The notes under the pieces: model-generated | Databases searched by the model: none | The model's input: only the letters and a program-made list of their open reading frames with translations | Told to the model about the DNA's origin: nothing | Assembly: GCF_001677475.2 (NCBI RefSeq) | Contig: NZ_CP015229.1 | Reading direction: 5' to 3' (one strand) | Source: Escherichia coli | GTDB taxonomy: Bacteria > Pseudomonadota > Gammaproteobacteria > Enterobacterales > Enterobacteriaceae | Length of the DNA: 64,000 nt | Made by a program: the position numbers and the translations under genes | Shown here: piece by piece, positions 9,654-64,000 of the stretch | How the letters are laid out: each line of letters begins with the position of its first letter | How positions within the stretch are numbered: the first letter of the stretch is position 1

Positions 9654-9660
9654 TTTCTCA

Positions 9661-13244: not shown

Positions 13245-13255
13245 AGGAGTTAATT

Positions 13256-34621: not shown

Positions 34622-34682
34622 GGTATCCGTTCTGCTGAAGTGTCATGGCGTTGATTTTACGGTGACTCTTCGACAGTGAAAA

Positions 34683-34704
34683 GAAAAAAGGCCGCAGAGC
34701 GGCC
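34683..34704 (-). terminator. intrinsic terminator (minus strand) near left prophage boundary
   Basis: Hairpin GGCCGCTCTGCGGCC followed by T6 on the minus strand, about 110 bp downstream of the stop of ORF 34814..35344. Confidence 0.55.
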
Positions 34705-44641: not shown

Positions 44642-44645
44642 ACCA

Positions 44646-44957
44646 ATGACGACACCAACCAGACGGATAAGTTTCTATCTGAAGCCTGCGGCCGTCAAGA
44701 ACGAAAGCGAAGCATGCGCCTGGCTGGACAGCCTTACACCAGAAGCCCGCAAAAGCGGCCAACGCGTGGCTTTTCTGGCCGGGCTGGCACTTCTGAAAAT
44801 GAATCCGGCAGAGGCTTACCGACTGGCTGCATGGGCTGACGATGAGGCGTTATCAGTGACACAAACCAGGACAGAATGCCCCGCGTCACAGCCAGTATCA
44901 ACCGCACAGATAACCAGTCAGATGGCCGGAAATATCCGGGCGTTATTTCCCGAATAA
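44646..44957 (+). CDS. ParR-like centromere-binding/repressor protein
   Basis: ATG 44646 with GGAG RBS, 103 aa; RRISFYLKP...AWLDSLTPEARKSGQRVAFLAGLAL resembles R1 ParR N-terminal RHH region; immediately downstream of parM-like gene. Confidence 0.7.
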   Translation: MTTPTRRISFYLKPAAVKNESEACAWLDSLTPEARKSGQRVAFLAGLALLKMNPAEAYRLAAWADDEALSVTQTRTECPASQPVSTAQITSQMAGNIRALFPE

Positions 44958-48627: not shown

Positions 48628-50378
48628 CAGAACTCCATAACCGTGAAACGCTCGTTTTCTCCTTCGCCGCCAATCGGTTCGTTAATGACAGCAAGCATGG
48701 TTGCCCACGCAAGGTCGCCGTGGCTGATCCCCCTCGCGCGGTCCGTTTCGTAAGTGATAAAGCCGCCCGGTGTTTTCACCTTACGCACGGCGTTAAAGGC
48801 CGCGACCAGCTCGCGTTCGGCGCGATCGTATTCCCAGCGCCCGGCACGCATTATTTGCAGCATTTTCAGTACCAGCGACCGTTTTGATGACAGCGTGAAG
48901 GTGTACGGAATAGCAGCAGGGAAAAACCGTTTCACTATCTGATAAACAGCCTCCCCGTTCCCGCCCGTCACATCAATGCCGATGTGTTCCACGTTGTAGC
49001 GATACGTGAACTCTTCAATGACTCTGGCCTGTTCTTCAAACTCCAGCCCCTGAACGCGTCGCGTCTCCACCGTTCGAAAACGGCCACCAGGAACAGCCGG
49101 AGGAACCACCACGGACACAGCGCCGCTGTCGCCGTTGCCACTGCTGCCGTTTGCGTCATACCCAATCCATACCAGACGATTCCCCATCGGGCGGGGAGCA
49201 AAAGGTTTCCAGTCTTTCCAGTCGTCGTATCCGTCAACACCGCAGCCAATCAGGATATTCAGGTTAAATGCCGATTCCCCTTCGCGAACAAACTCACACA
49301 TATAGAGATTGAGGAACTCGTCTTCGGTGTTTTCATCACGGATTTCGTCAATATCGGTGTGTTTCCAGCCGTGATTAACCACATCTTCCAGCGTGACAAT
49401 TTGCCGCCACGTCCGGTCAGGGCAGATAAGCCCGTTATGCAGCGTTTTCCAGTCCACAGAAAAACGCTGGCGTTTATGCGAGGCCTTTTTCTCGTTCCAG
49501 CGGTCGCCGTTCCAGTAGGCGTATGCCTCGTGCGTTTCGGTGGATGGCGTGGAGAAGTAGGTGCGCCGCAGTCCGCTGAGGGTTGCCATAGCGCCAGCCA
49601 CCTTGCGCAGTTCAGCAAAGCGACTGACCCAGAAAAATTCATCAAAATAAAAATTGCCCGTATAGGACTGTGCCGACGCAGCAGAAGTGCCGAGAAAATG
49701 CAGCTCTGCGCCGTTGGAGAGGATGATTTTATCGCCCCCTTTCAGCTCCACATCAACTTCAGCCGCGGCCTTCTGAATAATGCTTTTAAACTGGAACGCC
49801 TGACGACGCGACGCAGACAAAAAAATCTGGTTACGCTGGTAAGGTTGCGCCACATCGTCACGCAGCGCCATCAGCAGCGCTTCCTGTGCAAAATACCAGG
49901 TTGCCCCAATCTGTCGGGATTTCAGGATCATCCTGTTACGTATCCCGGCTTCCCTGCAAAGGGTCAGGGAGTCAAACCAGCCCCGCTGATGCCACTCCAG
50001 CCTGCTGATGATTTTTTCCCGCAGTGCGGCAATCTGTTCCGGCGTGAAATGATTTTTGAGTTTTTTCGCCCGGCCTTTCTTTCCTGCGGCCATCACATCC
50101 GGCTGGCCATCATGCAGCTTTTTAAGCTGCCGGGTCAGCAGGTCTATTTCCTTAAAGTCACCGCCTGTTTTATTCTGTTTTTCAGTAAGCTGGATGAGGC
50201 GCGCATCGATGGACTGCGTGACACGCTGCACGGGTGGCGCTTCATCCCACTGGTCGCGTTTTTTCCACGCATAAATCGTGTTCGGGTTTATTCCCATCAG
50301 ACGTGATATTTCTGCGGGCGGATAACCCTGCCAGTAAAGTTGCCGCGCACGCTGGCGCACAAAAGCGTCCTGAATCAT
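48627..50378 (-). CDS. terminase large (ATPase) subunit, P2 gpP-like
   Basis: 583-aa ORF; leftward, divergent from capsid genes as in P2; KSRQIGATWYFA ATPase region. Confidence 0.85.
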   Translation of the reverse strand: MIQDAFVRQRARQLYWQGYPPAEISRLMGINPNTIYAWKKRDQWDEAPPVQRVTQSIDARLIQLTEKQNKTGGDFKEIDLLTRQLKKLHDGQPDVMAAGKKGRAKKLKNHFTPEQIAALREKIISRLEWHQRGWFDSLTLCREAGIRNRMILKSRQIGATWYFAQEALLMALRDDVAQPYQRNQIFLSASRRQAFQFKSIIQKAAAEVDVELKGGDKIILSNGAELHFLGTSAASAQSYTGNFYFDEFFWVSRFAELRKVAGAMATLSGLRRTYFSTPSTETHEAYAYWNGDRWNEKKASHKRQRFSVDWKTLHNGLICPDRTWRQIVTLEDVVNHGWKHTDIDEIRDENTEDEFLNLYMCEFVREGESAFNLNILIGCGVDGYDDWKDWKPFAPRPMGNRLVWIGYDANGSSGNGDSGAVSVVVPPAVPGGRFRTVETRRVQGLEFEEQARVIEEFTYRYNVEHIGIDVTGGNGEAVYQIVKRFFPAAIPYTFTLSSKRSLVLKMLQIMRAGRWEYDRAERELVAAFNAVRKVKTPGGFITYETDRARGISHGDLAWATMLAVINEPIGGEGENERFTVMEF

Positions 50379-50532
50379 TGCTCCCCCTGAGTAATTACAG
50401 GAAGATTACCCGCGCGCGAAACCGTTCTCCTTAACCCCCTGTTCTGGCCGTTTTCTTACAACAAAAGCCCTTTGTATCAGCCTGTTACGCTTTGCCATCA
50501 TGACTGAAGAACCAGTCAGAGGGGCAAAAACT

Positions 50533-51369
50533 ATGGCTAATGAAAAAAAGACATCCCGCAAAAAGTTTCGCGTGGCTGTCTCCGGATCAACTGTTGATGG
50601 CCGTGAAATCAGCCCGGTACATCTGCGTGAAGCCGCCGAGAACTTCAACCCGGATGTTTACGCTGCCCGCGTGAACGTTGAGCACTATCTCTCGCCATGC
50701 CCGTCAAGCGAATTTTCCGCAATGGGCGATGTCACCGCGCTGAGTACGGAAGATATTACGGAAGGCCCGCTGGCCGGACGTACTGCGCTGTATGCAGAAA
50801 TCGAACCGACCGAGCGCATGAAGCAGCTTGTCGCTGACGGCAAGAAAATCTATTCCAGTATCGAACTGCACCCGCAGTTCTCCGTTAACGGGCGCGCCTA
50901 TCTGGTCGGGCTGGCGATGACCGACACCCCGGCAAGCCTGGGCACTGAGCGCCTGAAATTCACGGCACAGCAGCGTCAGGCGGTGATGACGTTCAACAGT
51001 ATCCAGGGTGAAGCACCGCTTATCTCCGAAGCCATCGAGTCTGAAATCATCGAAATGGCAGAACAACGCCAGGAAGAAGGCAGCCAGTGGTTTAACCGCG
51101 TAATGGGGATTATTGGTCGTGGGCGCAAAGCGGATGACGCCAGTTTCTCCCGTATTCAGGAAGCGGTGGAAGGCGTCGCAACGTCACAGGCCGACATTAT
51201 CGACCGTTTTAATGTGCTGGAAACCCGCCATCAGCAGGACCGCCAGAAAATCACGTCACTGACCACAGAGCTGGCAGCACTGAAGGAAAAACTGCGCACG
51301 CAGGACGGCGATCCGCAGAACCGGTTCACCGCAACGGGCGCAGCCTCCGACCAGCTGGCTGACTTCTGA
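50533..51369 (+). CDS. capsid scaffolding protein, P2 gpO-like
   Basis: ORF 50500..51369; start set at MANEKKTSRKKFRVAVSG (GAGGGG RBS); position upstream of major capsid gene. Confidence 0.65.
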   Translation: MANEKKTSRKKFRVAVSGSTVDGREISPVHLREAAENFNPDVYAARVNVEHYLSPCPSSEFSAMGDVTALSTEDITEGPLAGRTALYAEIEPTERMKQLVADGKKIYSSIELHPQFSVNGRAYLVGLAMTDTPASLGTERLKFTAQQRQAVMTFNSIQGEAPLISEAIESEIIEMAEQRQEEGSQWFNRVMGIIGRGRKADDASFSRIQEAVEGVATSQADIIDRFNVLETRHQQDRQKITSLTTELAALKEKLRTQDGDPQNRFTATGAASDQLADF

Positions 51370-51391
51370 TAAGACAAAGGAGCAAATTTTT

Positions 51392-52444
51392 ATGAATCTG
51401 GTGATGTCAGATATTACCCGCAACAAGCTGGGTTGCTATATGGCGCAGCAGGCGTCGCTTAACAATATCCCGGTATCTGCACTGGTATCGCGATTTACCG
51501 TAGAACCCTCGGTGCAGCAGCGTTTTGAAAACGCAGTAAAGGAGAGCACTGAATTTACAAAAAAAATTAACGTGTTCGGTGTGACCGACCAGAAAGGCGA
51601 AAAAATCCTCCTGGACACCACCGGGCCGATTGCGCGCACGAATACCAGTTATGACGGCACAAAACGCCGTAACCCGAATAACGTGGTTGATCTGAAAAAC
51701 CGCAAATATCAGTGCGAACAGGTGAACTACGACACGTTTATTTCGTATCCGAAGCTTGATGCCTGGGCGGCACACCCTGATTTTCAGTCACGCGTCAGCA
51801 CACGGATTGCCCGGCAGGTGGCGCTTGACCGCATCATGATCGGTTTCAACGGCACGTCTCACGCAGATGAGTCCAACTTCAGCACCAACAATCTGCTTCA
51901 GGACGTTAACGTGGGATGGCTGGAGCACATCAGAACCGACGCCAGCGAGCGCGTAATGAATGACGTGACGCTGACCTCCCGCAACATGGACAACACTGTG
52001 GCGCACGCGGGTAAGTATGCGAACGCTGATGCACTGGTACAGGACGCGCGCTCATCCCTGCTGGATGAATGGCACAAGGAAGCTGACGACCTCGTGGTGA
52101 TTATGGGGCGCAACCTGTTTAACTCGCTGCGTCTGCCCGTACTGAACAGCATCAGCGGCCAGAATCCCAATGCGGAATTACTTGCCGGACAGCTCATCCT
52201 GTCATCGCGCGCCATTGGCGGGCTGGATGTATTCCTTGCGCCGTTCTTCCCGGATGCAACGATGCTGATCACCTCGTTCAACAACCTGTCGATTTACTGG
52301 CAGAAAGGAACAATGCGTCGCCTGATGAAAGACGAGCCGGAATACAACCGCATCGCCACCTACCAGTCCATCAATGACGCTTATGTCGTTGAAGACTATG
52401 GCAAGTGCGCGATGGTCACTGGCCTGAAGTTCGCCGACAGCTAA
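51392..52444 (+). CDS. major capsid protein, P2 gpN-like
   Basis: 350-aa ORF with GGAG RBS; motifs FTVEPSV, YQCEQVNYD, IMIGFNG, DATMLIT, VVEDYG resemble P2 N. Confidence 0.85.
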   Translation: MNLVMSDITRNKLGCYMAQQASLNNIPVSALVSRFTVEPSVQQRFENAVKESTEFTKKINVFGVTDQKGEKILLDTTGPIARTNTSYDGTKRRNPNNVVDLKNRKYQCEQVNYDTFISYPKLDAWAAHPDFQSRVSTRIARQVALDRIMIGFNGTSHADESNFSTNNLLQDVNVGWLEHIRTDASERVMNDVTLTSRNMDNTVAHAGKYANADALVQDARSSLLDEWHKEADDLVVIMGRNLFNSLRLPVLNSISGQNPNAELLAGQLILSSRAIGGLDVFLAPFFPDATMLITSFNNLSIYWQKGTMRRLMKDEPEYNRIATYQSINDAYVVEDYGKCAMVTGLKFADS

Positions 52445-52489
52445 TCAACTCACGGCGGGCATCATACCCGCCTGTAACGGAGAGAAAAA

Positions 52490-53290
52490 ATGATTACTCC
52501 TGCACAGCAACACTGGCAGAACGTGATGGCACAGCGCGCAGGCCGGGCGAATGAAGGCGTGGACCACGCCGCGCGTACCGCGCATGAAGAGGTGCTGTAT
52601 CGTCTGCGTCTGGCACAGGCCCGGCTTAAGGGCGTACAGGCCAGAAGCGCGAAAGCCGCCATCAAAAAAGAGTTGTTGCCGGATTTTTCCGGCTGGATTG
52701 AGGGAACGCTGGAGGCTGACGGCGGGCAGCAGGATGAAGTGATTGCCACGCTGATGGTGTGGGCGATTGACTGCGGCGATCTTCCGCTGGCGTTGCGTAT
52801 TGGTGCGTATGTGGTCCGTCATAACCTCATTATGCCGGATAACTTTGGCCGTACTGCTGCCACGGTACTGACCGAAGAAATCTGCAACCCGGTACTGACG
52901 CAGGCCGGGACGGATGCCGACGCGGATTTATCCGCCTTTATCGAACCACTGGATACCCTCCGGGAGATTGTCACCGACCAGGACATGCCGGACGAAGTGC
53001 GCGCCAAATTATGCAAGGCGTGCGCCTTTGCCCGTCGTGGTCTGAGTGATGCGGACAGCATGGCCCTGTCACTGAAGCTGCTGCGCGAAGCAATGCACCT
53101 GAACCCGAACGCAGGTGTGAAACGCGAGATTGCAACCCTTTCCCGCGCCCTGAAAAAAGCCGATTCCGCAGCCGCACCAGAAGACGCCAGCGCACAGCAA
53201 ACGCAGGACGAAAGCAGCAAAAGTAAAAAGACAACGCGGAAGCCTGCAACACGAAAAACCACCGCGACGCAGAAGGCGAAGCGCGGTTAA
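52490..53290 (+). CDS. terminase small subunit, P2 gpM-like
   Basis: 266-aa ORF after capsid gene; acidic/basic C-terminus; position. Confidence 0.6.
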   Translation: MITPAQQHWQNVMAQRAGRANEGVDHAARTAHEEVLYRLRLAQARLKGVQARSAKAAIKKELLPDFSGWIEGTLEADGGQQDEVIATLMVWAIDCGDLPLALRIGAYVVRHNLIMPDNFGRTAATVLTEEICNPVLTQAGTDADADLSAFIEPLDTLREIVTDQDMPDEVRAKLCKACAFARRGLSDADSMALSLKLLREAMHLNPNAGVKREIATLSRALKKADSAAAPEDASAQQTQDESSKSKKTTRKPATRKTTATQKAKRG

Positions 53291-53383
53291 CGACTGACCC
53301 CGTCAGCGGGCGGCGTGCGCGGTGTTCCGGTTTGACTCCGTGACCGTTTACACCGCGCACCCACCGCCCGATTTTTTTCAGGA

Positions 53384-53887
53384 GTGAACCCCATGAGTAT
53401 GGTTGCCAGAAATGAACCCAGACCCGCAGAGGACGACATCACCGATACCGATGATGGCGATACCCGCATTTCAGCGGGTGCATTCTGGCCGGATATTGTG
53501 CTGCGCGAGCTGCGTCTGGCGGTACGACTGCCGGGCCGCGTGACTACCTCCCGCCTGCTGCATACTGCCACCGGGGCTGTGGCACACGTTACCCGCGAGC
53601 TGGAAGCATGGCAGCAGGAACAGCAGGCAGCTGGCCATCAGACGCTGGCCGATGTTCCGGCACCCGTAATTAACGGAGAAAGCGTCAATCTCTGGCACTG
53701 GCGCAATGCTGTTTATACCGCCACGCGCGCCCTGATTCTGGAGCGTTATCGTGATGCAGACACAACGGACAAGGGCGACCGCCGGGCGGACGCACTGGAT
53801 ATACAGACATCGGATTTGTGGCGTGATGTGAGCTGGGCCATCTCTGACATTCTGTGCCGCCCACGAATCTTTGCGGAGTTGTGCTGA
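53384..53887 (+). CDS. head completion/stabilisation protein, P2 gpL-like
   Basis: 167-aa ORF; position after M. Confidence 0.55.
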   Translation: MNPMSMVARNEPRPAEDDITDTDDGDTRISAGAFWPDIVLRELRLAVRLPGRVTTSRLLHTATGAVAHVTRELEAWQQEQQAAGHQTLADVPAPVINGESVNLWHWRNAVYTATRALILERYRDADTTDKGDRRADALDIQTSDLWRDVSWAISDILCRPRIFAELC

Positions 53888-54087
53888 TGAAAGTAAAGGC
53901 ACTGGAAGGCGACACCGTGGATTCGCTCTGTTTCCGGTACTACGGCACGACGCAGGGCGTCACCGAAAAGGTGCTGGATGCCAACCCCGGACTCTGTCAG
54001 CAGGTATTTCTGGACGCCGGGCAGGAAGTGGAGATGCCGGAGCCGGAGAAGAAGAAACGAGAAATGATTCAGTTGTGGGGGGAGTAG
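53884..54087 (+). CDS. tail protein X-like (LysM-like small protein)
   Basis: 67-aa ORF; position between L and holin as P2 X. Confidence 0.55.
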   Translation: MMKVKALEGDTVDSLCFRYYGTTQGVTEKVLDANPGLCQQVFLDAGQEVEMPEPEKKKREMIQLWGE

Positions 54088-54089
54088 CA

Positions 54090-54413
54090 GTGAGCACCAT
54101 TCAAACAGGGATCACAGAGCAGGTTATTGCGTGGCTCTTTGACCACCTGCCAACGGTGTATGCAGTAGGCGCGGCGGTCAGCATTTCCGCGCTGATGAGT
54201 CTTTATGACGGACGAACACTGGTTCAGACCGTAACGGGATCGCTGGCGTGCGGCGTTCTTGCCATGGCCGTGGCCGGGTCGTTGCGCTTCTTCGGGTTTC
54301 CTGAAGATGCCGTGACGTTTATCGGCGCATCAATCGGTTTTATGGGGGCAGAGAAAGCACGCGACAAGGTTATTGCGGCCTTTAATCGCAGGGTGAAGGA
54401 GAAGGACGAATGA
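54090..54413 (+). CDS. holin
   Basis: GTG start at 54090; about 107 aa with two hydrophobic helices and charged C-terminus; precedes endolysin. Confidence 0.55.
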   Translation: MSTIQTGITEQVIAWLFDHLPTVYAVGAAVSISALMSLYDGRTLVQTVTGSLACGVLAMAVAGSLRFFGFPEDAVTFIGASIGFMGAEKARDKVIAAFNRRVKEKDE

Positions 54414-54802
54414 GCAACACATTTAAATTCAGCAGCCGGAGCGAAATGAATTTGCAGGGCGTAAATCCTGATCTGGTGAAAGTGACCCGACGGGCACTGG
54501 AAATCTCGGAAGTGGATTTTGGTATCACCGAAGGGTTGCGCAGCCGTTACCGCCAGAAGCAACTTGTGGCCACAGGTAAGAGCCAGACCATGAACAGCCG
54601 CCACCTTACGGGGCATGCCGTGGATGTTGTGGCTTATATCGGCAGCCAGGTGTCATGGGAATGGCCGCTGTACGAAAAAATCGCAGCAGCATTCAGACAG
54701 GCCAGCCGGGAACTGAATATTCCGGTGGAATGGGGCGGCGACTGGAAGACCCTGAAAGACGGACCGCATTTTCAGTTACCACACGGAGCCTATCCGGCAT
54801 GA
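54410..54802 (+). CDS. endolysin, peptidase M15 (L-alanyl-D-glutamate endopeptidase type)
   Basis: 130-aa ORF; SRHLTGHAVDV-like zinc-binding region typical of VanY/M15 peptidases; lysis-cassette position. Confidence 0.65.
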   Translation: MSNTFKFSSRSEMNLQGVNPDLVKVTRRALEISEVDFGITEGLRSRYRQKQLVATGKSQTMNSRHLTGHAVDVVAYIGSQVSWEWPLYEKIAAAFRQASRELNIPVEWGGDWKTLKDGPHFQLPHGAYPA

Positions 54803-55206
54803 AGCTCTGGCCCACGCTGGGTGTCGCTTTCCTTCTGATTGCCGCATGGGGAACATCCATGCGTCTGTCGTGGTCGCTGGGCCGGGAGAACGCCAGAAAC
54901 GAAGCGCAGGCCAGCACCCTGAAAAGTACCGCCGACACCCTGAATATCATCAGCGCCGGGGTACAGGATATGCAGCAGGTGCTGGCGCAACTCCGCGTGG
55001 AAAATCAGCAACGCAATCAGGACGGAGAGGTAAGACGTGAACAGCTACGCAACGATATTGCAAAAGATGAATGCGCCCACGCTTTGCCTGACGCTCGTTT
55101 TACTGACAGGCTGCGCAGGCACGCAGAACGCGCCACTGCCAGCGCCGTCAGTCCGGCTTATACCGCAGACGCTGACCATACCGGTAACGCCTCCCCCCTT
55201 CCCTGA
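54799..55206 (+). CDS. spanin inner-membrane subunit (LysB/Rz-like)
   Basis: ORF 54655..55206 with start at MKLWPTLGVAFLLIAAWG (N-terminal TM) overlapping endolysin stop; coiled-coil body. Confidence 0.5.
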   Translation: MKLWPTLGVAFLLIAAWGTSMRLSWSLGRENARNEAQASTLKSTADTLNIISAGVQDMQQVLAQLRVENQQRNQDGEVRREQLRNDIAKDECAHALPDARFTDRLRRHAERATASAVSPAYTADADHTGNASPLP

Positions 55207-55357
55207 TACTCCCACATGGGGAAATCTCGGTATATGGGGCGACCGCCTTCTGGATGCACTGGAAACCTGTAACGCGGATAAACGGGCCATTGAATTACTG
55301 GAACAGCGCAGGCTGCAACGACTGAACAACGAGGACAACAACCATGCTGAAAACTGA
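55067..55357 (+). CDS. spanin outer-membrane lipoprotein subunit (LysC/Rz1-like)
   Basis: ORF 55037..55357; MNAPTLCLTLVLLTGC signal with lipobox Cys; Pro-rich; overlaps LysB 3' end in another frame. Confidence 0.55.
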   Translation: MNAPTLCLTLVLLTGCAGTQNAPLPAPSVRLIPQTLTIPVTPPPFPDTPTWGNLGIWGDRLLDALETCNADKRAIELLEQRRLQRLNNEDNNHAEN

Positions 55358-55811
55358 TTCCCTGCGTGAAGCCATGACCCGTTCATGCCGATGGTGTCAG
55401 GCCAACCCGGAAAAATTCACCATTTTCGTGGAGAGCGGCAACATTGAAACGACAGGAGAAACCCCATCGTTTGTTTACCGCTATCAGATGGTGATGTTTG
55501 TCATGGATTACGCCGGGGAGCTGGACGACCTCACGCTGCCGCTGCTGGCGTGGTTATCCGAAAATCAGCCACAGTTGTTGCTCAACCCGGAGCGTAATCA
55601 GGACATCAAATTCTCCGCCGTTATCAATGACGATGACAGCGCCGATCTCCTGTTTACGCTCCCCCTGCGGGAACGCGTTCGCATCACGCGCAGCAGTCAG
55701 GGCACACCGCAGGCAGAACACCTGCCGGAGCCAAAACCACGCCTGCCATCTTCCGAAGGCGACTGGTCGCATGTATTCCGGGATGTGACGTGGGGTGAAA
55801 GCGATGGATAA
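55344..55811 (+). CDS. tail completion protein, P2 gpR-like
   Basis: 155-aa ORF; position and size as P2 R. Confidence 0.55.
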   Translation: MLKTDSLREAMTRSCRWCQANPEKFTIFVESGNIETTGETPSFVYRYQMVMFVMDYAGELDDLTLPLLAWLSENQPQLLLNPERNQDIKFSAVINDDDSADLLFTLPLRERVRITRSSQGTPQAEHLPEPKPRLPSSEGDWSHVFRDVTWGESDG

Positions 55812-56439
55812 GGCATTCACCCGCGTGGATGAAACCTTTGAGGCCATCCGCGACAGCCTGAATCAGCAGGCCATCAATAACATCGCCAGAAAGCTGGCAC
55901 AGGATTTACGCCGCGCCCAGCAGGCGCGTATCCGGTCACAGAAAGCGCCGGACGGGACCGCGTGGACACCACGCAGACGCCGCGTAACCCGGATACAGGA
56001 ACGCATTCGCTTTATCTGGAATAACGAAGCACGCACGCTGAAAAACTGGCATCACGACACGGGGAAATACGGGCGAACCATTACCGGGTGGGATGAGGAT
56101 AAAAACAATATCCGCACGTTTTACCGGGATGACATCGACCGTTTTCTGGAAATACGCACCCGGCGCATCAACCAGGACAGCACAAAGCGCGTCCCCATGT
56201 TCGTAAAACTGCGCACCGCCCGCTACCTGAAAGCCCGTGCAGATGCTTCCGGTGTGACGGTGGGTTACAGCGGCGTGGCTGCACGTATTGCACGCGTTCA
56301 TCAGTTTGGTGAGCGCGATCAGGTTGCGCCGGGCATTTTCACCGATTACCCGGTACGTGAGCTGTTGGGCATCAGTCAGGCAGATGAACGCCTGATTTAT
56401 AACACGGTGCTGGGCCGGATTGCGGAGGCTGTACGGTGA
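55795..56439 (+). CDS. virion morphogenesis/tail completion protein, gpS-like
   Basis: 214-aa ORF; position after R. Confidence 0.5.
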   Translation: MKAMDKAFTRVDETFEAIRDSLNQQAINNIARKLAQDLRRAQQARIRSQKAPDGTAWTPRRRRVTRIQERIRFIWNNEARTLKNWHHDTGKYGRTITGWDEDKNNIRTFYRDDIDRFLEIRTRRINQDSTKRVPMFVKLRTARYLKARADASGVTVGYSGVAARIARVHQFGERDQVAPGIFTDYPVRELLGISQADERLIYNTVLGRIAEAVR

Positions 56440-57017
56440 GCGCAGAACTCATGCGGCTGCTGAGCAACATCATCCGCACCGGGATCATCTCTGAAGTTGA
56501 TGAGGAATCCTGGTGCGTGCGCGTTCGCAGCGGCGAACTGGAAACAGGCTGGCTGCGCTGGAACACCACTCGCGCGGGAGCCTTCAATGTGTGGCTGCCG
56601 CCATCACCAGGCGAACAGGTGGTAATTGCCTGCATCGGCGGCAACCCGGAAACCGCCATGATAATTGGCAGCCTGTGGAGTGATGCCAGTCCGGCCCCCG
56701 GCAAAAGCCTGAAAGAAATCGTGATCAGCGCGCCGGACGGCGCGGTGTTCCGCTACGACGCGGACGCTGGCGCACTGAGCGCCAGCGGCATGAAAACGGC
56801 CACTTTACAGGCATCCGTCAGCGTGACACTGGATACGCCCGTCGTGGAATGCACAAACCTTCTGAGAACGGCGACGCTTGACGTCACAAAAGGAGGAAAG
56901 ATGAGCGGCAATATCACGCACAGCGGCGGCAACTTCACCTCAAACGGCATTACCGTGCATACGCATAAACACGGTGGCGTGAAAGGCGGCAGCGATTCGA
57001 CAGGAGGCCCGCAGTGA
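56436..57017 (+). CDS. baseplate spike/assembly protein, P2 gpV-like
   Basis: 193-aa ORF; Gly-rich C-terminus; position. Confidence 0.7.
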   Translation: MSAELMRLLSNIIRTGIISEVDEESWCVRVRSGELETGWLRWNTTRAGAFNVWLPPSPGEQVVIACIGGNPETAMIIGSLWSDASPAPGKSLKEIVISAPDGAVFRYDADAGALSASGMKTATLQASVSVTLDTPVVECTNLLRTATLDVTKGGKMSGNITHSGGNFTSNGITVHTHKHGGVKGGSDSTGGPQ

Positions 57018-57364
57018 CAACCCGCTACACAGGAATGAACCCGGACGGAACGGGAAACCTGAACGATATGGAGCACCTGAAACAGTCAGTCAGGGACATC
57101 CTGACCACCCCGCTGGCAAGCCGGGTTATGCGACGGGAATATGGCAGCCTTGTGCCTGATTTGATTGACGAACCCATGAATAACACCACGCGTCTGCAAT
57201 GCATGAGTGCTGCCGTGATTGCACTGACACGATGGGAACCCCGCATTGCCCTGGACGCCATCGACGTTGTCTGGAAGGCAGGAGGCCGCGCCGGGGTGAC
57301 GCTGTCGGGCACTGTCATGCAGACCATGCAGAATGTTGAATTAACCATCACGCTGAGGGAGTAA
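57014..57364 (+). CDS. baseplate wedge protein, P2 gpW-like (GPW/gp25 family)
   Basis: 116-aa ORF; position and size. Confidence 0.65.
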   Translation: MTTRYTGMNPDGTGNLNDMEHLKQSVRDILTTPLASRVMRREYGSLVPDLIDEPMNNTTRLQCMSAAVIALTRWEPRIALDAIDVVWKAGGRAGVTLSGTVMQTMQNVELTITLRE

Positions 57365-57367
57365 ATC

Positions 57368-58264
57368 ATGCCTGCCGTTGACCTTTCACAGTTACCGGAA
57401 CCCGCCATCATCGCGGAGCCTGACTTTGAGGCAATTCTGGCTGACACAAAGGCCATGATGATTGCGTCCTATCCCGCCGAACAGCGTGAAGCCGTCTCCG
57501 CCGCGCTGGAGCTGGAATCGGAACCCCTGAACGTTATCGCCCAGACAACAGCGTTTCGTGAAATGCTGTTACGCCAGCGGGTCAATGAGGGGGCACGCGC
57601 CTGCATGTTAAGCCACAGCGCCGGGACAGACCTGGACAACCTCGCGGGCAATATGAACACAAAGCGCCTGACCATCACTCCGGCAACGGATACCACCGAC
57701 GCGGTGATGGAGAGCGACACCTCGCTGAGACTGCGGGCGCAGCGGGCGTATGACGGCCTGAGTGTTGCAGGCCCGTCAGGCGCATACGAGTATTTTGCAC
57801 GCAGCGCCAGCGGTCTGGTGCGTGATGCGCGGGCCATCAGCCCGTCTCCGGCCTGTGTGACGGTTTCCATTCTGTCCACTGAAGGCGACGGCACAGCAAC
57901 GGAGGCGTTGCTTAATACCGTTCGCGCCGTTCTGAATGCAGAGGATACCCGCCCGGTGGCCGACCGCCTTACTGTACAGAGCGCCAGAATCGTGACATGG
58001 CGGCTGAATGCAAAACTGTACTTTTACCCCGGCCCGGAATCCGAACCTATTCTGGCCGCGGCGGAATCGTCATTCAGGAAGTGGCTGGCTGAACAGGGGC
58101 TTATCGGTCAGGACGTGGCGTTGTCCGCCATTGCTGCCGCACTGCATGTGCACGGTGTGCAACGCGTGGAGATAATCGAACCCACACAGAATATGGCCAT
58201 CAGCGACATACAGGCGGCGCGCTGTGAGTCATTCACCATCAGCGAAGGTGGACGCAATGAGTAA
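57368..58264 (+). CDS. baseplate protein, P2 gpJ-like
   Basis: 298-aa ORF; position and size. Confidence 0.7.
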   Translation: MPAVDLSQLPEPAIIAEPDFEAILADTKAMMIASYPAEQREAVSAALELESEPLNVIAQTTAFREMLLRQRVNEGARACMLSHSAGTDLDNLAGNMNTKRLTITPATDTTDAVMESDTSLRLRAQRAYDGLSVAGPSGAYEYFARSASGLVRDARAISPSPACVTVSILSTEGDGTATEALLNTVRAVLNAEDTRPVADRLTVQSARIVTWRLNAKLYFYPGPESEPILAAAESSFRKWLAEQGLIGQDVALSAIAAALHVHGVQRVEIIEPTQNMAISDIQAARCESFTISEGGRNE

Positions 58265-58865
58265 TTCGTTGTTACCACCATCAGCCAGCAATTTCATGCG
58301 TTGTGCCGAAGCCGTCGGAACACGCATTACAGACATTCCGGTAGACCTCAACACGCTGTGGTCGCCGGACACCTGCCCGGTGCATCTGCTGCCTTATCTC
58401 GCCTGGGCGTTTTCCGTTGACCGCTGGGATCGCAACTGGCCGGAAGAGACAAAGCGACAGGTGATTCGTGATGCATGGCTGATACACCGACACAAAGGGA
58501 CCATCAGCGCACTGCGAAGAGCCGTGGAGCCTCTCGGCTACCTGATTGAAGTAAAGGAGTGGTGGCAACTCAACGAGGAGCCGGGAACATTTCGCATTGT
58601 TGTCGGAGTACTTGATCAGGGCATCACCGATGAAATGTATCAGGAACTTGAGCGCCTTATTGCGGATGCAAAACCAGTAAGTCGCCATCTGACGGGGCTG
58701 GCGATCAGCCTGAGTGTGAACGGAAAGATTTTCGTTGGTACGGGATGCTATCACGGCGATGCCCTGACGGTTTATCCCTACACCCCGGAGTCCATTATTG
58801 TCGAAGGGGATTATTTCCCTGCCCCGGCCATTCATTTAATTGATAATCTGAGAGTAAACGCATGA
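58257..58865 (+). CDS. baseplate protein, P2 gpI-like
   Basis: ORF 58224..58865 with start at [11 protein letters not shown]; position. Confidence 0.6.
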
Positions 58866-60346
58866 CAGTGAAATACTACGCCATTCTGACTAATCAGGGC
58901 GCGGCACGACTGGCTAACGCGACGATGCTCGGCAGTAAGCTGAATCTGACGCAAATGGCCGTTGGTGATGCAAATGGTGTGTTACCAACACCAGACCCTG
59001 CACAAACAAAACTGATTAACCAGAAACGCATTGCACCGCTGAATCTTCTGAGTATTGACCCGAACAACCAGAACCAGATTATCGCGGAGCAAATCATCCC
59101 TGAGAACGAGGGCGGATTCTGGATCCGTGAGATTGGTCTTTATGATGATGAAGGCGTACTCATTGCGGTGGCAAACTGCCCGGAAACGTACAAACCGCAG
59201 TTGCAGGAAGGCAGTGGACGCACCCAGACTATCCGCATGATTCTGGTTGTCACGAACACCGAAGCCATCACGCTGAAAATCGACCCGTCTGTGGTTCTGG
59301 CAACCCGCAAATATGTGGATGACAAAATCTCAGAGCACGAGCAGTCACGACGTCACCCGGACGCCTCGCTGACTGTAAAAGGTTTTACTCAGTTAAGCAG
59401 CGCAATTAACAGTGAATCAGAAACACTGGCCGCAACACCGAAAGCGGTTAAGGCTGCATATGACCTGGCTAACGGGAAATATACCGCCCAGAACGCCACC
59501 ACAACACAAAAAGGGATTGTTCAGCTCAGTAGCGCCACAAACAGCACGTCTGAAACGCTGGCAGCGACACCAAAAGCTGTTAAGGCGGTAATGGATGAAA
59601 CGAGCAAGAAAGCACCATTAAACAGCCCGGCACTGACCGGAACGCCAACAACACCAACAGCGCCACAGGGGACTAATAGTACCCAGATCGCAAGCACGGC
59701 TTTCGTTATGGCCGCGATTGCCGCACTTGTAGATTCGTCACCTGATGCACTGAACACGCTGAACGAACTGGCTGCGGCGCTGGGCAATGACCCGAATTTT
59801 GCGACCACCATGACTAACGCGCTTGCGGGTAAGCAACCGAAGGATGCCACCCTGACGGCGCTGGCGGAGCTTGCTACATCAGCAGATAAACTCCCATATT
59901 TTACAGGGGCAGATCGTGCCGCGTTAACCGCGTTGACAAGTGTTGGACGTGCCATTCTTGGTAAAACCAGCACTCAGGGAGTTCTTGATTACCTTGGTTT
60001 GGGAGAAGCGGCTAAAAGGAATGTAGGGACAGGGGCGAATCAGATACCTGATATGGGTAGCTTCACGCTTTCTGTTTCAGGTACTGGATATCAAAAATTA
60101 CCATCAGGTTTTATTCTTCAGTGGGGATCAATCGGCGCACCAGGCATTGCACAGGATGTAGTAACCCATTTCCCGATTGCATTTCCAAACAGATGTCTGC
60201 GTGTTTTGGTCTCACAAGACTACACACCAGATAGCGGGGCTGTTGGTTATATTGCCTGTGCAGGTTTTAGTCCCGACCCGGTTAAATTTATATCCAGAGC
60301 CAGTACTCCTGGCCTCGGCGCTTCATTTTTAGCGTTAGGCTGTTAA
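58862..60346 (+). CDS. tail fibre protein, P2 gpH-like (constant N-part plus invertible C-terminal part)
   Basis: 494-aa ORF; internal [13 protein letters not shown] repeats typical of tail fibres; C-terminal ~115 aa lie inside invertible segment. Confidence 0.8.
59981..60006. promoter_or_regulatory. invertase crossover site (left), inside tail-fibre gene
   Basis: Reverse complement TTCTCCCAAACCAAGGTAATCAAGAA matches right site in first 14 positions; gix/hix-like architecture. Confidence 0.65.
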
Positions 60347-60367
60347 TTTAGCTATATGGAGTGAAAA

Positions 60368-60808
60368 ATGAATTACATATATTCCGCGACTACAAACTCT
60401 TTCTATCCGCTGGAGATGAAAGAGGATTACACTCAAGCTGACTCATGGCCAGATGATGCTGTTGAAGTTGATGAGCAAGTGTATATTGAGTTTTCCGGAT
60501 TACCGCCGAAAGGAAAAATCCGTATCGCTGGAGAAAATGGTTTTCCTGCATGGTCTGAAATTCCACCACCAACACATGAGGAACAAATTGCTGCAGCCGA
60601 ATTGGAGAAGCAGCAATTGATTAATCAGGCCAACGATTATATGAACAGTAAACAATGGCCTGGTAAAGCGGCTATTGGTCGTCTGAAAGGTGAGGAACTG
60701 GCGCAATATAATTTGTGGCTGGATTATCTGGACGCACTGGAACTGGTTGATACCTCCAGTGCTCCAGATATTGAATGGCCTACGCCTCCGGCAGTTCAGG
60801 CCAGATGA
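60368..60808 (+). CDS. tail fibre assembly protein (Tfa, gpG-like), currently expressed orientation
   Basis: 146-aa ORF; C-terminal motif LWLDYLDALELVDTSSAPDIEWP shared with inverted paralog. Confidence 0.7.
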   Translation: MNYIYSATTNSFYPLEMKEDYTQADSWPDDAVEVDEQVYIEFSGLPPKGKIRIAGENGFPAWSEIPPPTHEEQIAAAELEKQQLINQANDYMNSKQWPGKAAIGRLKGEELAQYNLWLDYLDALELVDTSSAPDIEWPTPPAVQAR

Positions 60809-61376
60809 CATCCGGCGCGGTGCTGGTATCTGTTGCCGTCACCGCGTCAATGTAATCCAGCACAGCGTTAAGTCTGGTTGTTTCTGCCTGCGTCAGTTTA
60901 CGTCCGGCCTGTAATTTCAGCTGAATCAGACTAATGGAAGCCATTGCTGCATCAATCAGTGACTGGCGCTGTGCTTCTGCCGTTTCTACTGCGGCACCGT
61001 GTTGTGCCTCAGTATCTGTCACCCATTTCTCACCATCCCATTTATCATATGGCGTTAACGGTGAAAGCGTGACATAACCGTTTTTGATGGCACCGATATA
61101 ATCCACTGTAACAGCAGCACCATTTTCGATTGAGTAAACAGTCTCATTGCGATGGTCTTCTTCATGGCTCCATCCCTTACCTGTAAATACTGCCACTCTT
61201 CCCGGAATGTTTTTGCCAGGGTCAATTCCAGTGGAACAGGCGGGCATACTTACGCCAGTATTAATATATTCATCAGACCAGCCCGTATACTCAGATGTTT
61301 CAGCATCATAATAAAAACAACGCATATCGCCCGGCACTGTAGCCAGTCCATTTTCATCAAAAATTGGGGTCATCAT
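60780..61376 (-). CDS. alternative tail fibre assembly protein (Tfa'), inverted orientation
   Basis: 198-aa ORF convergent with tfa; C-terminal motif LNAVLDYIDAVTATDTSTAPDVIWP. Confidence 0.65.
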   Translation of the reverse strand: MMTPIFDENGLATVPGDMRCFYYDAETSEYTGWSDEYINTGVSMPACSTGIDPGKNIPGRVAVFTGKGWSHEEDHRNETVYSIENGAAVTVDYIGAIKNGYVTLSPLTPYDKWDGEKWVTDTEAQHGAAVETAEAQRQSLIDAAMASISLIQLKLQAGRKLTQAETTRLNAVLDYIDAVTATDTSTAPDVIWPELPEA

Positions 61377-61816
61377 TTAGCCCTCACCAGAAAGTTAAAT
61401 GCAATATTTCGCGGTCTGACGGCAACAAAATTCACACCATCACCCACAGAGTTACTGGTGAAATTAAATCGTGAAAATCCTGGCTGATTTCCGGCGATAC
61501 CATCATGAAAATTAATTGCGTGGCCCGCACCATCGCCTATATTCCCGGCAAACTGAGAAAAGTTTGTAGCTGCCTGCCAGCTTAATAATTCGCGACCACC
61601 GTCTACACCTCGCCCGTCATCCCAGATACGAATGAAATCACCGCGGGCTTCAGGTAATACCAGCGAAGGAAACACTTTCGCCAGCACAGGGTAATCAGTG
61701 GCAGAAAATTTCGCCCCGTTGAACTTCAAAAACACCATACCGGACCAGCTGTCGATTACAGTATTTGGCATTGCCGCGGAGGGCCAGAAGAACGGAACGC
61801 CAATAGCTGGAGTACC
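61373..61816 (-). CDS. alternative tail-fibre C-terminal segment (promoterless; fused to H constant part after inversion)
   Basis: Open frame 61373..61870 on minus strand runs through right crossover site; encodes LGEG at the junction, matching LGLGE at the left site in H. Confidence 0.6.
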   Translation of the reverse strand, partial: GTPAIGVPFFWPSAAMPNTVIDSWSGMVFLKFNGAKFSATDYPVLAKVFPSLVLPEARGDFIRIWDDGRGVDGGRELLSWQAATNFSQFAGNIGDGAGHAINFHDGIAGNQPGFSRFNFTSNSVGDGVNFVAVRPRNIAFNFLVRAK

Positions 61817-61842
61817 TTCTCCCAAACCAACGTTTAAGAAAA
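61817..61842. promoter_or_regulatory. invertase crossover site (right)
   Basis: TTCTCCCAAACCAACGTTTAAGAAAA, imperfect palindrome resembling gix/hix; inverted repeat of site at 59981..60006. Confidence 0.65.
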
Positions 61843-61897
61843 TGCAGAGATTACGGCTAACTGGCATCATCCCCGGTTTTTATTCAGGGGATCCATC

Positions 61898-62497
61898 ATG
61901 CTTATTGGCTATGTCCGCGTATCAACAAATGACCAGAATACAGAATTGCAGCGTAACGCGCTGGAGTGCGCAGGATGTGAACTGATTTTTGAAGATAAAA
62001 TCAGCGGAACGAAATCAGCCAGACCGGGATTGAAAAAACTACTCAGAACGCTATCAGAAGGAGATACGCTGGTTGTCTGGAAGCTGGACAGACTGGGCAG
62101 AAGTATGAAACACCTGATCACGCTTATTGAGGAATTGCGGGAAAAAGGGGTTAATTTCCGTAGTCTGACGGACAGCATCGACACATCAACACCCATGGGG
62201 CGTTTCTTTTTTCACGTCATGGGGGCTTTAGCCGAAATGGAACGTGAATTAATTGTAGAGCGTACACTGGCCGGACTGGCAGCAGCACGCGCACAAGGAC
62301 GCATTGGCGGACGTCGCCCGAAGTTGACAAAAGAACAACACGAGCAAATAGCGAGGCTGATTAAAAACGGTCATGACAGGAAACAACTGGCGATCATTTA
62401 CGACATCGGCATATCGACGATTTATCGCTATCACCCTGCAGGCGATATACAGGCTGAAGAAACAACCAGGCAGACTCAGGAAAATGAAAACCGCTAA
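61898..62497 (+). CDS. serine DNA invertase, Pin/Gin/Hin/Cin family
   Basis: 199-aa ORF; N-terminal catalytic motif MLIGYVRVSTNDQ, resolvase domain, C-terminal HTH; adjacent to invertible segment. Confidence 0.9.
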   Translation: MLIGYVRVSTNDQNTELQRNALECAGCELIFEDKISGTKSARPGLKKLLRTLSEGDTLVVWKLDRLGRSMKHLITLIEELREKGVNFRSLTDSIDTSTPMGRFFFHVMGALAEMERELIVERTLAGLAAARAQGRIGGRRPKLTKEQHEQIARLIKNGHDRKQLAIIYDIGISTIYRYHPAGDIQAEETTRQTQENENR

Positions 62498-62523
62498 TCT
62501 GACCATTAGCGGTTTTGCGTTAA

Positions 62524-63018
62524 TCAAAACAGCCCTTTAACGGAGCTGGCCGCGCTGTTAAGGGATGATGTGACCTTATCTTTGAAGCCGGACAGCATAT
62601 CACTGAATGATGAGGATTGCAGGCGCTCCCGCAAATCCTCATCACAGCGTTCAAGAGTCAGTGAAAATTCTATCTTTTTCGCCTTACCGTAGCGATCAAA
62701 CTCGGAACGGGTCGTATTCGTTTCAGTCAGTACATACATGCCGTAAATTTGCCCGACACCATCAATCAGAGGCCAGGGGCGTCCTGTATATGCCTGCGTG
62801 GTCAGCAACGAAAGCGACACTTCGCCACCTGTAATTTCAGGATAAAGCACGCCGGAAAGCACAATGCGATCATCACCTGCACCGATATACTGCCAGCTTG
62901 CTGAACGGTTAACGCGTTCATTTTTCACATGCCGCCAGCTTTTGTTTTGCTGTAACTGCTGATGCGGCAGTGTGCGCAGCTCAAAAACAAACATGCCGTA
63001 GATCATCATCATGACCAT
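62524..63018 (-). CDS. tail protein, P2 gpU-like
   Basis: 164-aa ORF; motifs GMFVFELRTLPHQQ, GVLYPEITGG, WPLIDGVGQIYGMYV resemble gpU as I recall it. Confidence 0.55.
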   Translation of the reverse strand: MVMMMIYGMFVFELRTLPHQQLQQNKSWRHVKNERVNRSASWQYIGAGDDRIVLSGVLYPEITGGEVSLSLLTTQAYTGRPWPLIDGVGQIYGMYVLTETNTTRSEFDRYGKAKKIEFSLTLERCDEDLRERLQSSSFSDMLSGFKDKVTSSLNSAASSVKGLF

Positions 63019-63024
63019 GACTCC

Positions 63025-64000
63025 TCAATCTTTATCGTAAAAACTGCCACGTCCGGCACGGGCGCGCCGTTCCATCTCTGCCCTGACCATTTCACCGACC
63101 AGTTTCGCCAGTTCGCGGGGATTCTGCGTAACAACGTTATGCAGATGAACATGAATTTCACCGCCAAATCCGGAGACAGCAGGCTCCCGATTACGGGAAG
63201 CTGCAGGAACTGATGCCACTGGCGATCGTATGGCCTCCGCCACCGGGCGGGAGCTGGCCGCAACAACAGGGACCAGCGCCGGAGGCAGCGGAGCCGGGAC
63301 TACGGGTGTGATATTAATTGCGGGGGCAGGCTTACTGACCTGCGCAATCTTCCGCTCCTGCCACTCCCCACGAACAGCCAGTGCGCGGGGCAGGTTCTTA
63401 AAGACAATATCGCCGGGGCCAATGCGTTTTTTCGTCTCATCAACCAGCTTACCTGTGTTATCAGCAATTTTGCTGAGTCTGCGTAGCGTCCCGGTATTGC
63501 TGTCTGTGAGCGGTTTGTTGTCTTTGGGTTTATCACCTCCGGTGCCATTGCCATTTTCCACAGGCTTCGGCGGATTGATTTTCGCAAGGTCCCCCTGAAG
63601 CAAGGCAACCTTGTCCTGAAGAATGGCCGCACGCTGTGCGTCTTCGATTTTCTTGCGCGCCTTTTCCGCTTCATCCGGAAGGACGCCAAGTTTTTCAAGT
63701 ATCCACGCCAGCGTATCCAGTAGCATTTTTGCAGGTGTCAGAACAAGCTGTAACGCACCGCCAAGAACGTTACCGAATATCTCGCCAGCACTGGTACATT
63801 TATCCAGCGTTTCCTTGCTGGACTCCATCGGTGACAGCAGCGATTTAAACCAGTTAAACACCTGGCTGATCCCGCTTCCGATTGCGTCAAAAACAGGACC
63901 AAACCGTTCAAAGGTTTCGCGCAACGGGGTCAGCCTTTCCATAATCCCGCTGAACACCCCGGCATAAAACGCCTTGATGGGTTCCCAGTATTTCCAGATG
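63025..64000 (-). CDS. tail tape-measure protein, C-terminal part (gene start beyond window)
   Basis: Minus-strand frame open to window end; low-complexity Ala/Pro-rich and coiled-coil regions; immediately upstream of gpU-like gene. Confidence 0.55.
   Translation of the reverse strand, partial: IWKYWEPIKAFYAGVFSGIMERLTPLRETFERFGPVFDAIGSGISQVFNWFKSLLSPMESSKETLDKCTSAGEIFGNVLGGALQLVLTPAKMLLDTLAWILEKLGVLPDEAEKARKKIEDAQRAAILQDKVALLQGDLAKINPPKPVENGNGTGGDKPKDNKPLTDSNTGTLRRLSKIADNTGKLVDETKKRIGPGDIVFKNLPRALAVRGEWQERKIAQVSKPAPAINITPVVPAPLPPALVPVVAASSRPVAEAIRSPVASVPAASRNREPAVSGFGGEIHVHLHNVVTQNPRELAKLVGEMVRAEMERRARAGRGSFYDKD

Follow-up and report, generated by a model that had tools for sequence, protein, structure and literature searches.

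Comparison of gene order across related genomes indicates that the odd tail layout at the end of the window (the whole 64,000-nucleotide stretch of DNA analysed here) is the ordinary inherited gene order of a branch of P2-like phages. Taken as a whole, the region is very probably best explained as a P88-type prophage that carries a lineage-fixed, flipped FI-to-U block together with an ordinary invertase module. The flipped layout is the P2 order with the FI-to-U block inverted and D-ogr unmoved; it is already present in public genomes and is a lineage trait, and it should not be taken as prophage decay.

The end of the window contains the following features.

61898-62497, + strand: Pin/Gin-type serine DNA invertase, 199 aa (Pfam Resolvase and HTH_7; PHROG DNA invertase)
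62487..62516, no strand assigned: hairpin with a perfect 12-bp stem plus A and T tracts, where the invertase and gpU genes converge
62524-63018, - strand: gpU tail gene, 164 aa (Pfam Phage_P2_GpU), terminal gene of the leftward FI-FII-E-E'-T-U operon
62530..62548, - strand: second hairpin with a T run, at the 3' end of gpU (terminator scan)
63025-64000, - strand: 3'-terminal third of T, the tape-measure gene (residues 612-935 of 935), running off the window end

All three genes lie at the places and on the strands reported in the earlier note, which described an invertase followed by leftward gpU-like and T-like genes, and its gpU and T assignments are upheld by Pfam, PHROG and comparison with P88 and P2. 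The invertase matches Resolvase with E 6.1e-52 and HTH_7 with E 3.9e-13 in Pfam, and the PHROG DNA invertase family with E 1.2e-99. The gpU protein matches Phage_P2_GpU (PF06995) with E 5.5e-39, scoring 133 bits against a Pfam gathering score of 27.5 and covering profile positions 1-120 of 120, with 98.8% identity to its P88 counterpart and 46% to that of P2. The open frame of T (63025-63999, -) comprises 324 codons and is cut by the window end. Because the T fragment yielded no match in the Pfam search, its identity was settled through PHROG (tape-measure family phrog_28, E 4.4e-18) and through comparison with P88, to whose tape-measure protein it is 97.8% identical at residues 612-935; the identity to P2 gpT is 39% over 112 aa. 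As judged from these profile and pairwise comparisons, the E-values and identities for the three genes are far beyond chance. The P2 reference order against which the layout had been set (H-G-FI-FII-E-T-U-D, all rightward) is likewise correct. The tail block is indeed inverted relative to P2; its extent had been put too narrowly, at T-U alone, given that the flipped block comprises all of FI-FII-E-E'-T-U. The stop codons of the invertase and gpU genes are only 26 bp apart by direct reading of the sequence, and there is therefore no gpD between these genes.

The genes expected next lie beyond the window. Positions 48862-64000 are 100.000% identical to contig ABIYSL010000002.1 (GCA_025810455.1; L096), with 0 mismatches over 15,139 bases, and the sequence past position 64000 was read from this contig, taken as a stand-in for the window's own continuation. 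Past the window end, the minus strand of the contig encodes T (935 aa), E', E, FII and FI; after FI come gpD, rightward (+), an alpha/beta hydrolase gene, ogr, hok and the host gene ihfA. The gpD gene is intact (369 aa, Pfam Phage_GPD), is divergent from FI and lies about 4.3 kb past the window end. The presumed loss of gpD is accordingly not supported, since both an intact gpD and ogr are present in a contig identical to the window, and a gpD that is 'missing' at the edge of a window or contig is an edge effect. The earlier note had called for a search for the rest of the prophage, and FI, FII, E, D and ogr were all located in the identical contig.

The attachment core was sought by comparing positions 34500-36000 of the window, at the left prophage edge, with the hok-ihfA stretch of the identical contig.

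34680..34704, no strand assigned: attL core, the 25-bp repeat AAAGAAAAAAGGCCGCAGAGCGGCC, the longest string common to both prophage edges

The second copy of this repeat, attR, adjoins ihfA about 7.5 kb past the window end. The two repeats imply a prophage length of 36.8 kb, and the integration site lies between btuC and ihfA in an Escherichia/Shigella-type chromosome. The full P2 late gene set, Q P O N M L X R S V W J I H G and FI FII E E' T U D ogr, was found by Pfam or tblastn in the window together with the identical contig. Every structural and lysis gene of P88 has a full-length counterpart here that is 97-100% identical, except for the variable tail-fibre genes I, H and G and for E, at 75%. 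The immunity region (int, C, cox) is unlike that of P88 (43% identity for int, 34% for C and no match for cox), so that the regulatory genes are not judgeable by similarity to P88. Pfam and PADLOC scans of the accessory open reading frames near attL, between parMR and Q and after D revealed nothing notable, the matches being only an Ead/Ea22-like protein, coiled-coil noise and the alpha/beta hydrolase. Judging from this gene content, the window ends in an apparently intact 36.8-kb P2-like, P88-type prophage (Peduoviridae, probably Xuanwuvirus).

The closest known phages are P88 (Xuanwuvirus P88, NC_026014) and Citrobacter phage phiSM, both plaque-forming temperate phages whose late genes follow the same order, on the same strands, as in the window prophage: Q P / O N M L X, lysis genes, R S V W J I H G and the alternative fibre cassette, then the invertase, then U T E' E FII FI and finally D ogr hok. 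In structural proteins they match the window prophage at 97-100% identity, whereas the immunity/integration module, the distal part of H, the G chaperones, the invertase (87% identical between P88 and the window) and the accessory genes differ. ICTV sets the genus threshold at about 70% nucleotide identity or higher to a member, measured across the length of the genome; identity times coverage, an approximate figure from one-directional BLASTN, is 0.71 to P88 and 0.70 to phiSM, right at this threshold. The traits of Xuanwuvirus, namely the same late-gene order and near-identical structural proteins, are present. The canonical order G-FI-FII-E-T-U-D, which the window prophage does not have, is a P2 trait and not a criterion of the Peduoviridae, and because the ICTV-classified P88 and SEN4 share the flip, membership in this family is unaffected.

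The same flipped order was detected in P88, phiSM, SEN4, Kp4860-2, E. coli 1303 and PS1Thumoskin9, in 6 further NCBI contigs that encode an identical invertase (contigs at 97-98% identity), and in all of the IMG/VR loci retrieved with a gpU at least 72% identical (80 of 80). Salmonella phage SEN4/5 (Senquatrovirus) and Klebsiella phage Kp4860-2 (Reginaelenavirus) resemble the window prophage in the flipped FI-to-U block and in having D divergent from FI, but they have no invertase, their tail proteins are 57-69% identical, and almost no nucleotide similarity remains. P2 itself (Peduovirus P2) has the same late gene set at 40-70% protein identity, a divergent P/O promoter region and D-ogr beside the attachment site; unlike the window prophage, it has FI-FII-E-E'-T-U-D as one rightward operon from pF, where the window prophage has FI-to-U flipped and D alone, and it carries fun(Z) after G, with no invertase and no invertible fibre segment. 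That the arrangement results from misassembly of the window has a negligible probability, given that complete E. coli chromosomes, sequenced virion genomes and >80 independent contigs all show the same junctions.

The arrangement had been read as the scar of a large inversion or deletion that might have left the prophage non-viable. Functional relatives that share it argue otherwise: P88 (PMC5285337), phiSM (PMC6456863) and SEN4/5 (PMC5261728) are plaque-forming phages. The synteny comparison with intact P2-like phages that had been proposed thus points to a lineage trait, as in P88, phiSM and SEN4, and the doubt about viability loses its ground, because phages with the same order make plaques and the structural and lysis genes of P88 are matched here at full length. 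A literature search found no explicit account of the FI-to-U inversion, and a word search of the P88, phiSM and SEN4 papers yielded no comment on this architecture.

A recent inversion or deletion in this particular prophage, caused by activity of the prophage's invertase at a secondary site, removing gpD and leaving the prophage defective, is highly improbable. The invertase gene directly adjoins the flipped block, and one IMG/VR contig (L066) demonstrates that fibre and invertase modules can be rearranged beside gpU. However, in the identical contig the block is complete and gpD is intact, functional phages are arranged in the same way, the order is common to all relatives, including those without an invertase, and neither this prophage nor its complete relatives have invertase target sites at the boundaries of the block. 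The flipped block is present in L003, SEN4 and Kp4860-2, all of which lack an invertase, and this speaks against the suggested origin by invertase activity. In L003, a serine O-acetyltransferase gene occupies the invertase slot, and in SEN4 the slot is empty; no invertase match was found in 53 of the 80 IMG/VR loci with the flipped block, although some of these loci end close to U. Conversely, Salmonella phage Fels-2 (Felsduovirus) is P2-like and has a Gin/Pin-type invertase and an alternative fibre cassette after G, as does the window prophage, but it retains the canonical co-directional order. Because Fels-2 combines an invertase with the canonical order, while SEN4 and Kp4860-2 are flipped and have no invertase, the invertase and the flipped block are independent traits. 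Fels-2 had been considered as a sharer of the flipped order and was rejected: its invertase is followed by FI...U-D-ogr, all co-directional.

Among ten genomes placed on a quick neighbour-joining tree of FI+FII+U+D, built with no bootstrap, the five flipped genomes form one clade apart from all the canonical ones; the canonical order is kept in P2, Fels-2, a Gegavirus, ENT90 and the outgroup RSA1. Given that the flipped genomes form one clade and the others are canonical, the tree points to one old inversion. We propose that a single ancient inversion of the FI-to-U block occurred at the base of a clade with at least Xuanwuvirus, Reginaelenavirus and Senquatrovirus. In this lineage the tail operon FI-FII-E-E'-T-U is fixed in the direction opposite to that in P2, leftward and converging on the rightward V-W-J-I-H-G operon, whereas gpD and ogr retain the P2 orientation beyond FI. 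Repeated, independent origin of the flipped order in P2-like lineages is unlikely. Rearrangements of the tail operon are reported in other P2-like phages, for example Smp131 (PMC3931495), and SEN4 tail proteins are only about 57% identical to those of P88, so that the flipped clade is deep and thinly sampled. Against multiple origins, all five flipped genomes cluster on the tail-protein tree, the breakpoints, G/U and FI/D, are identical in all of them, and the FI/D spacer retains the same conserved dyad in the same position. The reverse polarity, with the P88-type order ancestral and the co-directional P2 order derived, seems very unlikely. The comparison includes one outgroup, RSA1; nevertheless, the P2 order is common to this betaproteobacterial phage and to the two canonical sub-clades from enterobacteria, which makes one flip, on the branch of P88 and SEN4, the simplest scenario. 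The flip matters little past correct annotation; a minor use is as a clean shared marker for the Peduoviridae clade of Xuanwuvirus, Reginaelenavirus and Senquatrovirus.

The invertase itself would belong to an ordinary Gin/Pin-type module, the parts of which are as follows.

58862..60346, + strand: tail-fibre gene H, with a constant N-terminal part up to the left crossover site, then the expressed C-terminal cassette
59982..60007, no strand assigned: left 26-bp crossover site TTCTTGATTACCTTGGTTTGGGAGAA (inverted-repeat pair I1, aligned)
60368..60808, + strand: G-like tail-fibre assembly gene of the expressed cassette (Pfam Caudo_TAP, E 1.9e-38)
60780..61376, - strand: alternative tail-fibre assembly gene, silent in the present orientation (Pfam Caudo_TAP, E 7.9e-27)
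61373..61870, - strand: alternative H C-terminal cassette that joins H on a flip (PHROG tail-fibre families, best E 1.6e-53)
61817..61842, no strand assigned: right-hand 26-bp crossover site TTCTCCCAAACCAACGTTTAAGAAAA, a short distance upstream of the invertase gene, forming an inverted-repeat pair with the left site

The H protein matches Pfam Phage_tail_fib, Phage_fiber_2 and Gp53-like_C, and it ceases to resemble P2 and P88 H at 60019. In E. coli 1303, the equivalent of the alternative H cassette is labelled by PGAP as a phage tail protein missing its N-terminus. The two crossover sites are the only invertase-target-like sites in the prophage, where no third pix-like site was found at up to 8 mismatches of 26. 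In the near-identical prophages L089, L091, L093 and L094, the tail-fibre segment, which is 95-97% identical, lies in the opposite orientation; judging from the two orientations seen across different genomes, this segment inverts. The invertase would flip only the roughly 1.8-kb segment between the two 26-bp sites, swapping the fibre tip and its chaperone. The module resembles the invertible tail-fibre switches of the Din family (Mu Gin, P1 Cin, e14 Pin), which have a serine recombinase of about 190-200 aa (199 aa here) with an N-terminal Resolvase and a C-terminal HTH_7 domain, inverted 26-bp sites, one within the fibre gene and the other beside the invertase gene, and two alternative sets of fibre tip and chaperone; in these features, no unusual difference from this family was found.

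The inversion may also bear on transcription. The hairpin at 62487-62516 was matched by the terminator scan, its predicted RNA fold on the + strand has an energy of -16.9 kcal/mol (z = -5.3), and its stem also forms on the - strand. It is probably a bidirectional intrinsic terminator, which the leftward tail operon would share with the invertase gene as its end point. A slot for accessory DNA may exist where the operons converge after G, filled here by the invertase module. At the other breakpoint, the flip predicts a divergent FI/D late promoter, and FI and D may be read from an Ogr-dependent promoter pair sharing one central activator site in the 157-bp spacer, like the pP/pO pair of P2. The broader proposition is that the inversion rewired late transcription, splitting gpD from the F operon, creating a second pP/pO-like pair at FI/D on a single Ogr-type site, and letting the V and F operons run towards a shared bidirectional terminator, with the opening of a protected accessory-gene slot; with motifs as the basis of its promoter architecture, we consider this an even prospect.

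The motif evidence comes from the divergent P/O and FI/D regions.

50441..50464, - strand: candidate Ogr-type late-activator site, TTGTTGT-N12-AGAAC, in the divergent P/O intergenic region

In P88-type genomes, this motif is found in the P/O and FI/D spacers only; within the latter spacer no element is better conserved, while the 12-nt centre of the motif is variable. Because it was derived after the fact from the two regions that it matches, it is circular for those genomes. The P2 late-promoter consensus is TGT-N12-ACA (PMC3931495). This strict form has no match in the P88-type spacers, where the left half-site is degenerate (TTCT) and departs from TGT, yet shows conservation and stands at the right place. 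The SEN4 genome contains exactly three copies of the dyad TTGT-N12-ACAA, compared to 0.54 expected: one in the P/O spacer, one upstream of V and one in the FI/D spacer. These positions lend independent support to the candidate Ogr-type site.

The three genes at the right end of the window were delineated from the list of open reading frames and the sequence as follows.

61898-62497, plus strand, serine invertase (199 aa)
62524-63018, minus strand, gpU (164 aa)
63025 to the window end, minus strand, tape-measure protein T (open frame)

The invertase matches Pfam Resolvase (6.1e-52) and HTH_7 as well as the PHROG 'DNA invertase' family (1.2e-99), and the 164-aa frame covers the full Phage_P2_GpU profile (5.5e-39), with 98.8% identity to P88 gpU and 46% to P2 gpU. 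The T frame, for which Pfam gave no match, aligns with residues 612-935 of the tape-measure protein of P88 at 97.8% identity; its similarity to P2 gpT and to the PHROG tape-measure family is weak. Thus, the earlier note had named and placed all three genes correctly, and the P2 order that it quoted is accurate. It was also right that no gpD lies between gpU and the invertase: the two stop codons are 26 bp apart, leaving no room for such a gene.

Bases 1 to ~34.6 kb of the window are Escherichia-type chromosome (ydiJ, suf, fadK, ppsA, aroH, selO, btu). The left boundary of the P2-like prophage is a 25-bp repeat at 34680, and its right part extends beyond the window end; the integrase is followed by genes for terminase, capsid, lysis, baseplate and fibres.

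35751-36722, minus strand, integrase

To follow the prophage further, we used a contig found by an exact look-up of the H protein, ABIYSL010000002.1 (GCA_025810455.1), which is 100.000% identical to window positions 48862-64000 (15,139 bases) and which, given this identity across 15 kb, we assume to stand for the window's own continuation. Past the window end, this contig carries on the leftward strand the remainder of T (935 aa in total), E', E, FII and FI. A 157-bp spacer separates FI from a rightward, intact 369-aa gpD (Pfam Phage_GPD), beyond which come a gene for an alpha/beta hydrolase, ogr and hok, then the 25-bp repeat again and finally ihfA of the host. Projected onto the numbering of the window, gpD begins at ~68267, 4.3 kb beyond the window end, and the prophage is 36.8 kb long. 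The search for FI, FII, E, D and ogr that had been proposed as a check thus located all five, and the suspected deletion with loss of gpD is contradicted by the intact gene. For each structural or lysis gene of P88, the prophage has an equivalent of full length, at 97-100% identity except for the variable fibre genes and E (75%). On this comparison, the late genes of the prophage can be regarded as free of deletion.

The resulting layout is the P2 order with the FI-FII-E-E'-T-U block reversed and D-ogr unmoved. The same layout was found in P88, Citrobacter phage phiSM, Salmonella phage SEN4 and Klebsiella phage Kp4860-2, in the E. coli 1303 and PS1Thumoskin9 prophages, and in six more NCBI contigs carrying the identical invertase. 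Among the 80 IMG/VR loci retrieved with gpU (identity down to 72%), all had U, T, FII and FI opposite to V/J/I/H and D/ogr where present on the contig. P88 is inducible with mitomycin C and plaque-forming (PMC5285337), phiSM both plaques on and lysogenises E. coli K-12 (PMC6456863), and SEN4/5 yield plaques and myovirus particles (PMC5261728). These functional phages share the flipped order, the very observation that the earlier note had said would make it a lineage trait, and the doubt about viability that had been drawn from gene order thereby loses its support. As judged from genome comparison, the seemingly non-canonical arrangement is the normal order of the P88-like lineage. RefSeq genomes of characterised phages already contain it; word searches of the P88, phiSM and SEN4 papers turned up no remark about it.

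The co-directional order is found in P2, Fels-2, a Klebsiella Gegavirus, Erwinia phage ENT90 and Ralstonia phage RSA1. In a small neighbour-joining tree (FI, FII, U and D concatenated; RSA1 as root; no bootstrap support), all five flipped genomes cluster in a single clade, with the canonical enterobacterial phages as its sister. The simplest reading of this topology is a single inversion at the base of the Xuanwuvirus, Reginaelenavirus and Senquatrovirus clade.

An origin of the flipped block through the invertase, acting at a secondary site, had also been suggested. The crossover sites of the invertase form an inverted pair.

59982-60007, left 26-bp crossover site, inside H
61817-61842, right 26-bp crossover site

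The 1.8-kb segment between them encodes two interchangeable pairs of H tip and chaperone, as in a standard Gin/Pin-type switch. No further site (up to 8 of 26 mismatches) was found in the window prophage, the complete 1303 prophage or an invertase-less relative, and the same scan of P88 recovered its own pair alone. SEN4 and Kp4860-2 are flipped without an invertase, PS1Thumoskin9 has a serine O-acetyltransferase gene in the G/U slot, and just 27 loci of the IMG/VR set of 80 show an invertase adjoining U; conversely, Fels-2 carries an invertase in the same slot as the window prophage, yet retains the canonical order. These comparisons show that the flipped block is independent of the invertase, which serves ordinary tail-fibre switching and has left no sign of activity where the block begins and ends. 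Hence, of the original proposals, deletion, invertase action and lost viability are unsupported, whereas the inversion relative to P2 stands as evolutionary history.

Segment 59982-61842 is reversed in four near-identical prophages (L089, L091, L093, L094; 95-97% identical over the segment), indirect evidence that the fibre switch is active in nature. The G/U slot (window 60347-62523; 30996-31568 in L003, the PS1Thumoskin9 prophage), where both tail operons converge, holds the invertase module in the window and the acetyltransferase in L003, and is empty in SEN4; its position is that of fun(Z) in P2. The sole relative with a differing local layout, L066 (IMGVR_UViG_2648501916_000004, 6700-13405), has gpU, a minus-strand invertase, an N-terminally truncated gpI and H on the strand of U, then alternative fibre cassettes and, where the contig ends, a second invertase on the plus strand; a two-prophage recombinant, a true fibre-module inversion and an assembly chimera are all conceivable.

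The late operons of P2 depend on Ogr acting via TGT-N12-ACA sites (PMC3931495). The P2 pP and pO promoters are a divergent pair. In the SEN4 genome, the dyad TTGT-N12-ACAA occurs exactly 3 times against 0.54 expected: one each in the P/O and FI/D spacers and one directly upstream of V. In P88-type genomes, TTGTTGT-N12-AGAAC occurs solely in the P/O (window 50441-50464) and FI/D spacers, which is weaker evidence because the motif was derived from these same regions. Across 49 distinct spacers, the FI/D element has a fixed position, with the half-sites best conserved and the 12-nt centre variable. Taking these lines of evidence together, we propose that FI...U and D may be transcribed from a divergent late-promoter pair around one common activator site, like P2 pP/pO. 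A candidate terminator occupies the interval where the invertase gene and gpU converge.

62487-62516, perfect 12-bp hairpin flanked by A and T tracts

Its stem (-16.9 kcal/mol, z = -5.3) forms on either strand, and termination in both directions is probable. S and V share 4 bases, leaving no spacer, in the window prophage (55795-57017) and in P88, whereas a promoter-bearing gap precedes V in P2 and SEN4. In the P88-type lineage, transcription of the O operon may therefore continue into the baseplate operon.

By sequence, the prophage is a P88-like member of the Peduoviridae; identity times coverage is ~0.71 with P88 and ~0.70 with phiSM, values that sit at the threshold for a genus, and its immunity and integration module differs from that of P88. 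Between the replication and portal genes (window 43682-44954) lie plasmid partition genes of the ParM/ParR type (99% and 95% identity to their P88 counterparts), an unusual cargo in an integrating P2-like phage. The D-ogr junction (9237-9995 in L096, which is ABIYSL010000002.1; also L002, the 1303 prophage, L003 and L089-L094) appears to be a cargo hotspot, with a different accessory gene in each relative: the hydrolase, for which PADLOC gave no match, in ABIYSL010000002.1, an AAA ATPase in 1303, and elsewhere a DUF3800 protein, a PIN_4 protein, an unannotated gene or nothing.

Annotation errors were also encountered. In 1303 (L002 29473-30582) and PS1Thumoskin9 (L003 37767-38567), PGAP shortens gpD to 266 aa under the name 'VgrG/Pvc8 family' protein and places a small pseudogene upstream of it; the complete 369-aa frame is intact in L002, its start having been under-called. 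In the phiSM GenBank record OR565851.1 (2294-4745), the tail sheath is named 'late control gene D protein' and gpD 'ogr/Delta-like zinc finger', their true identities being shown by tblastn with P2 and P88 proteins. As for the host, for which Shigella or a divergent Escherichia clade would be guesses, a comparison of window positions 1-25000 (ydiJ, suf, fadK, ydiF and others) with 5,426 complete E. coli genomes gave no identity above 98.2%, and its lineage may be absent from that set.
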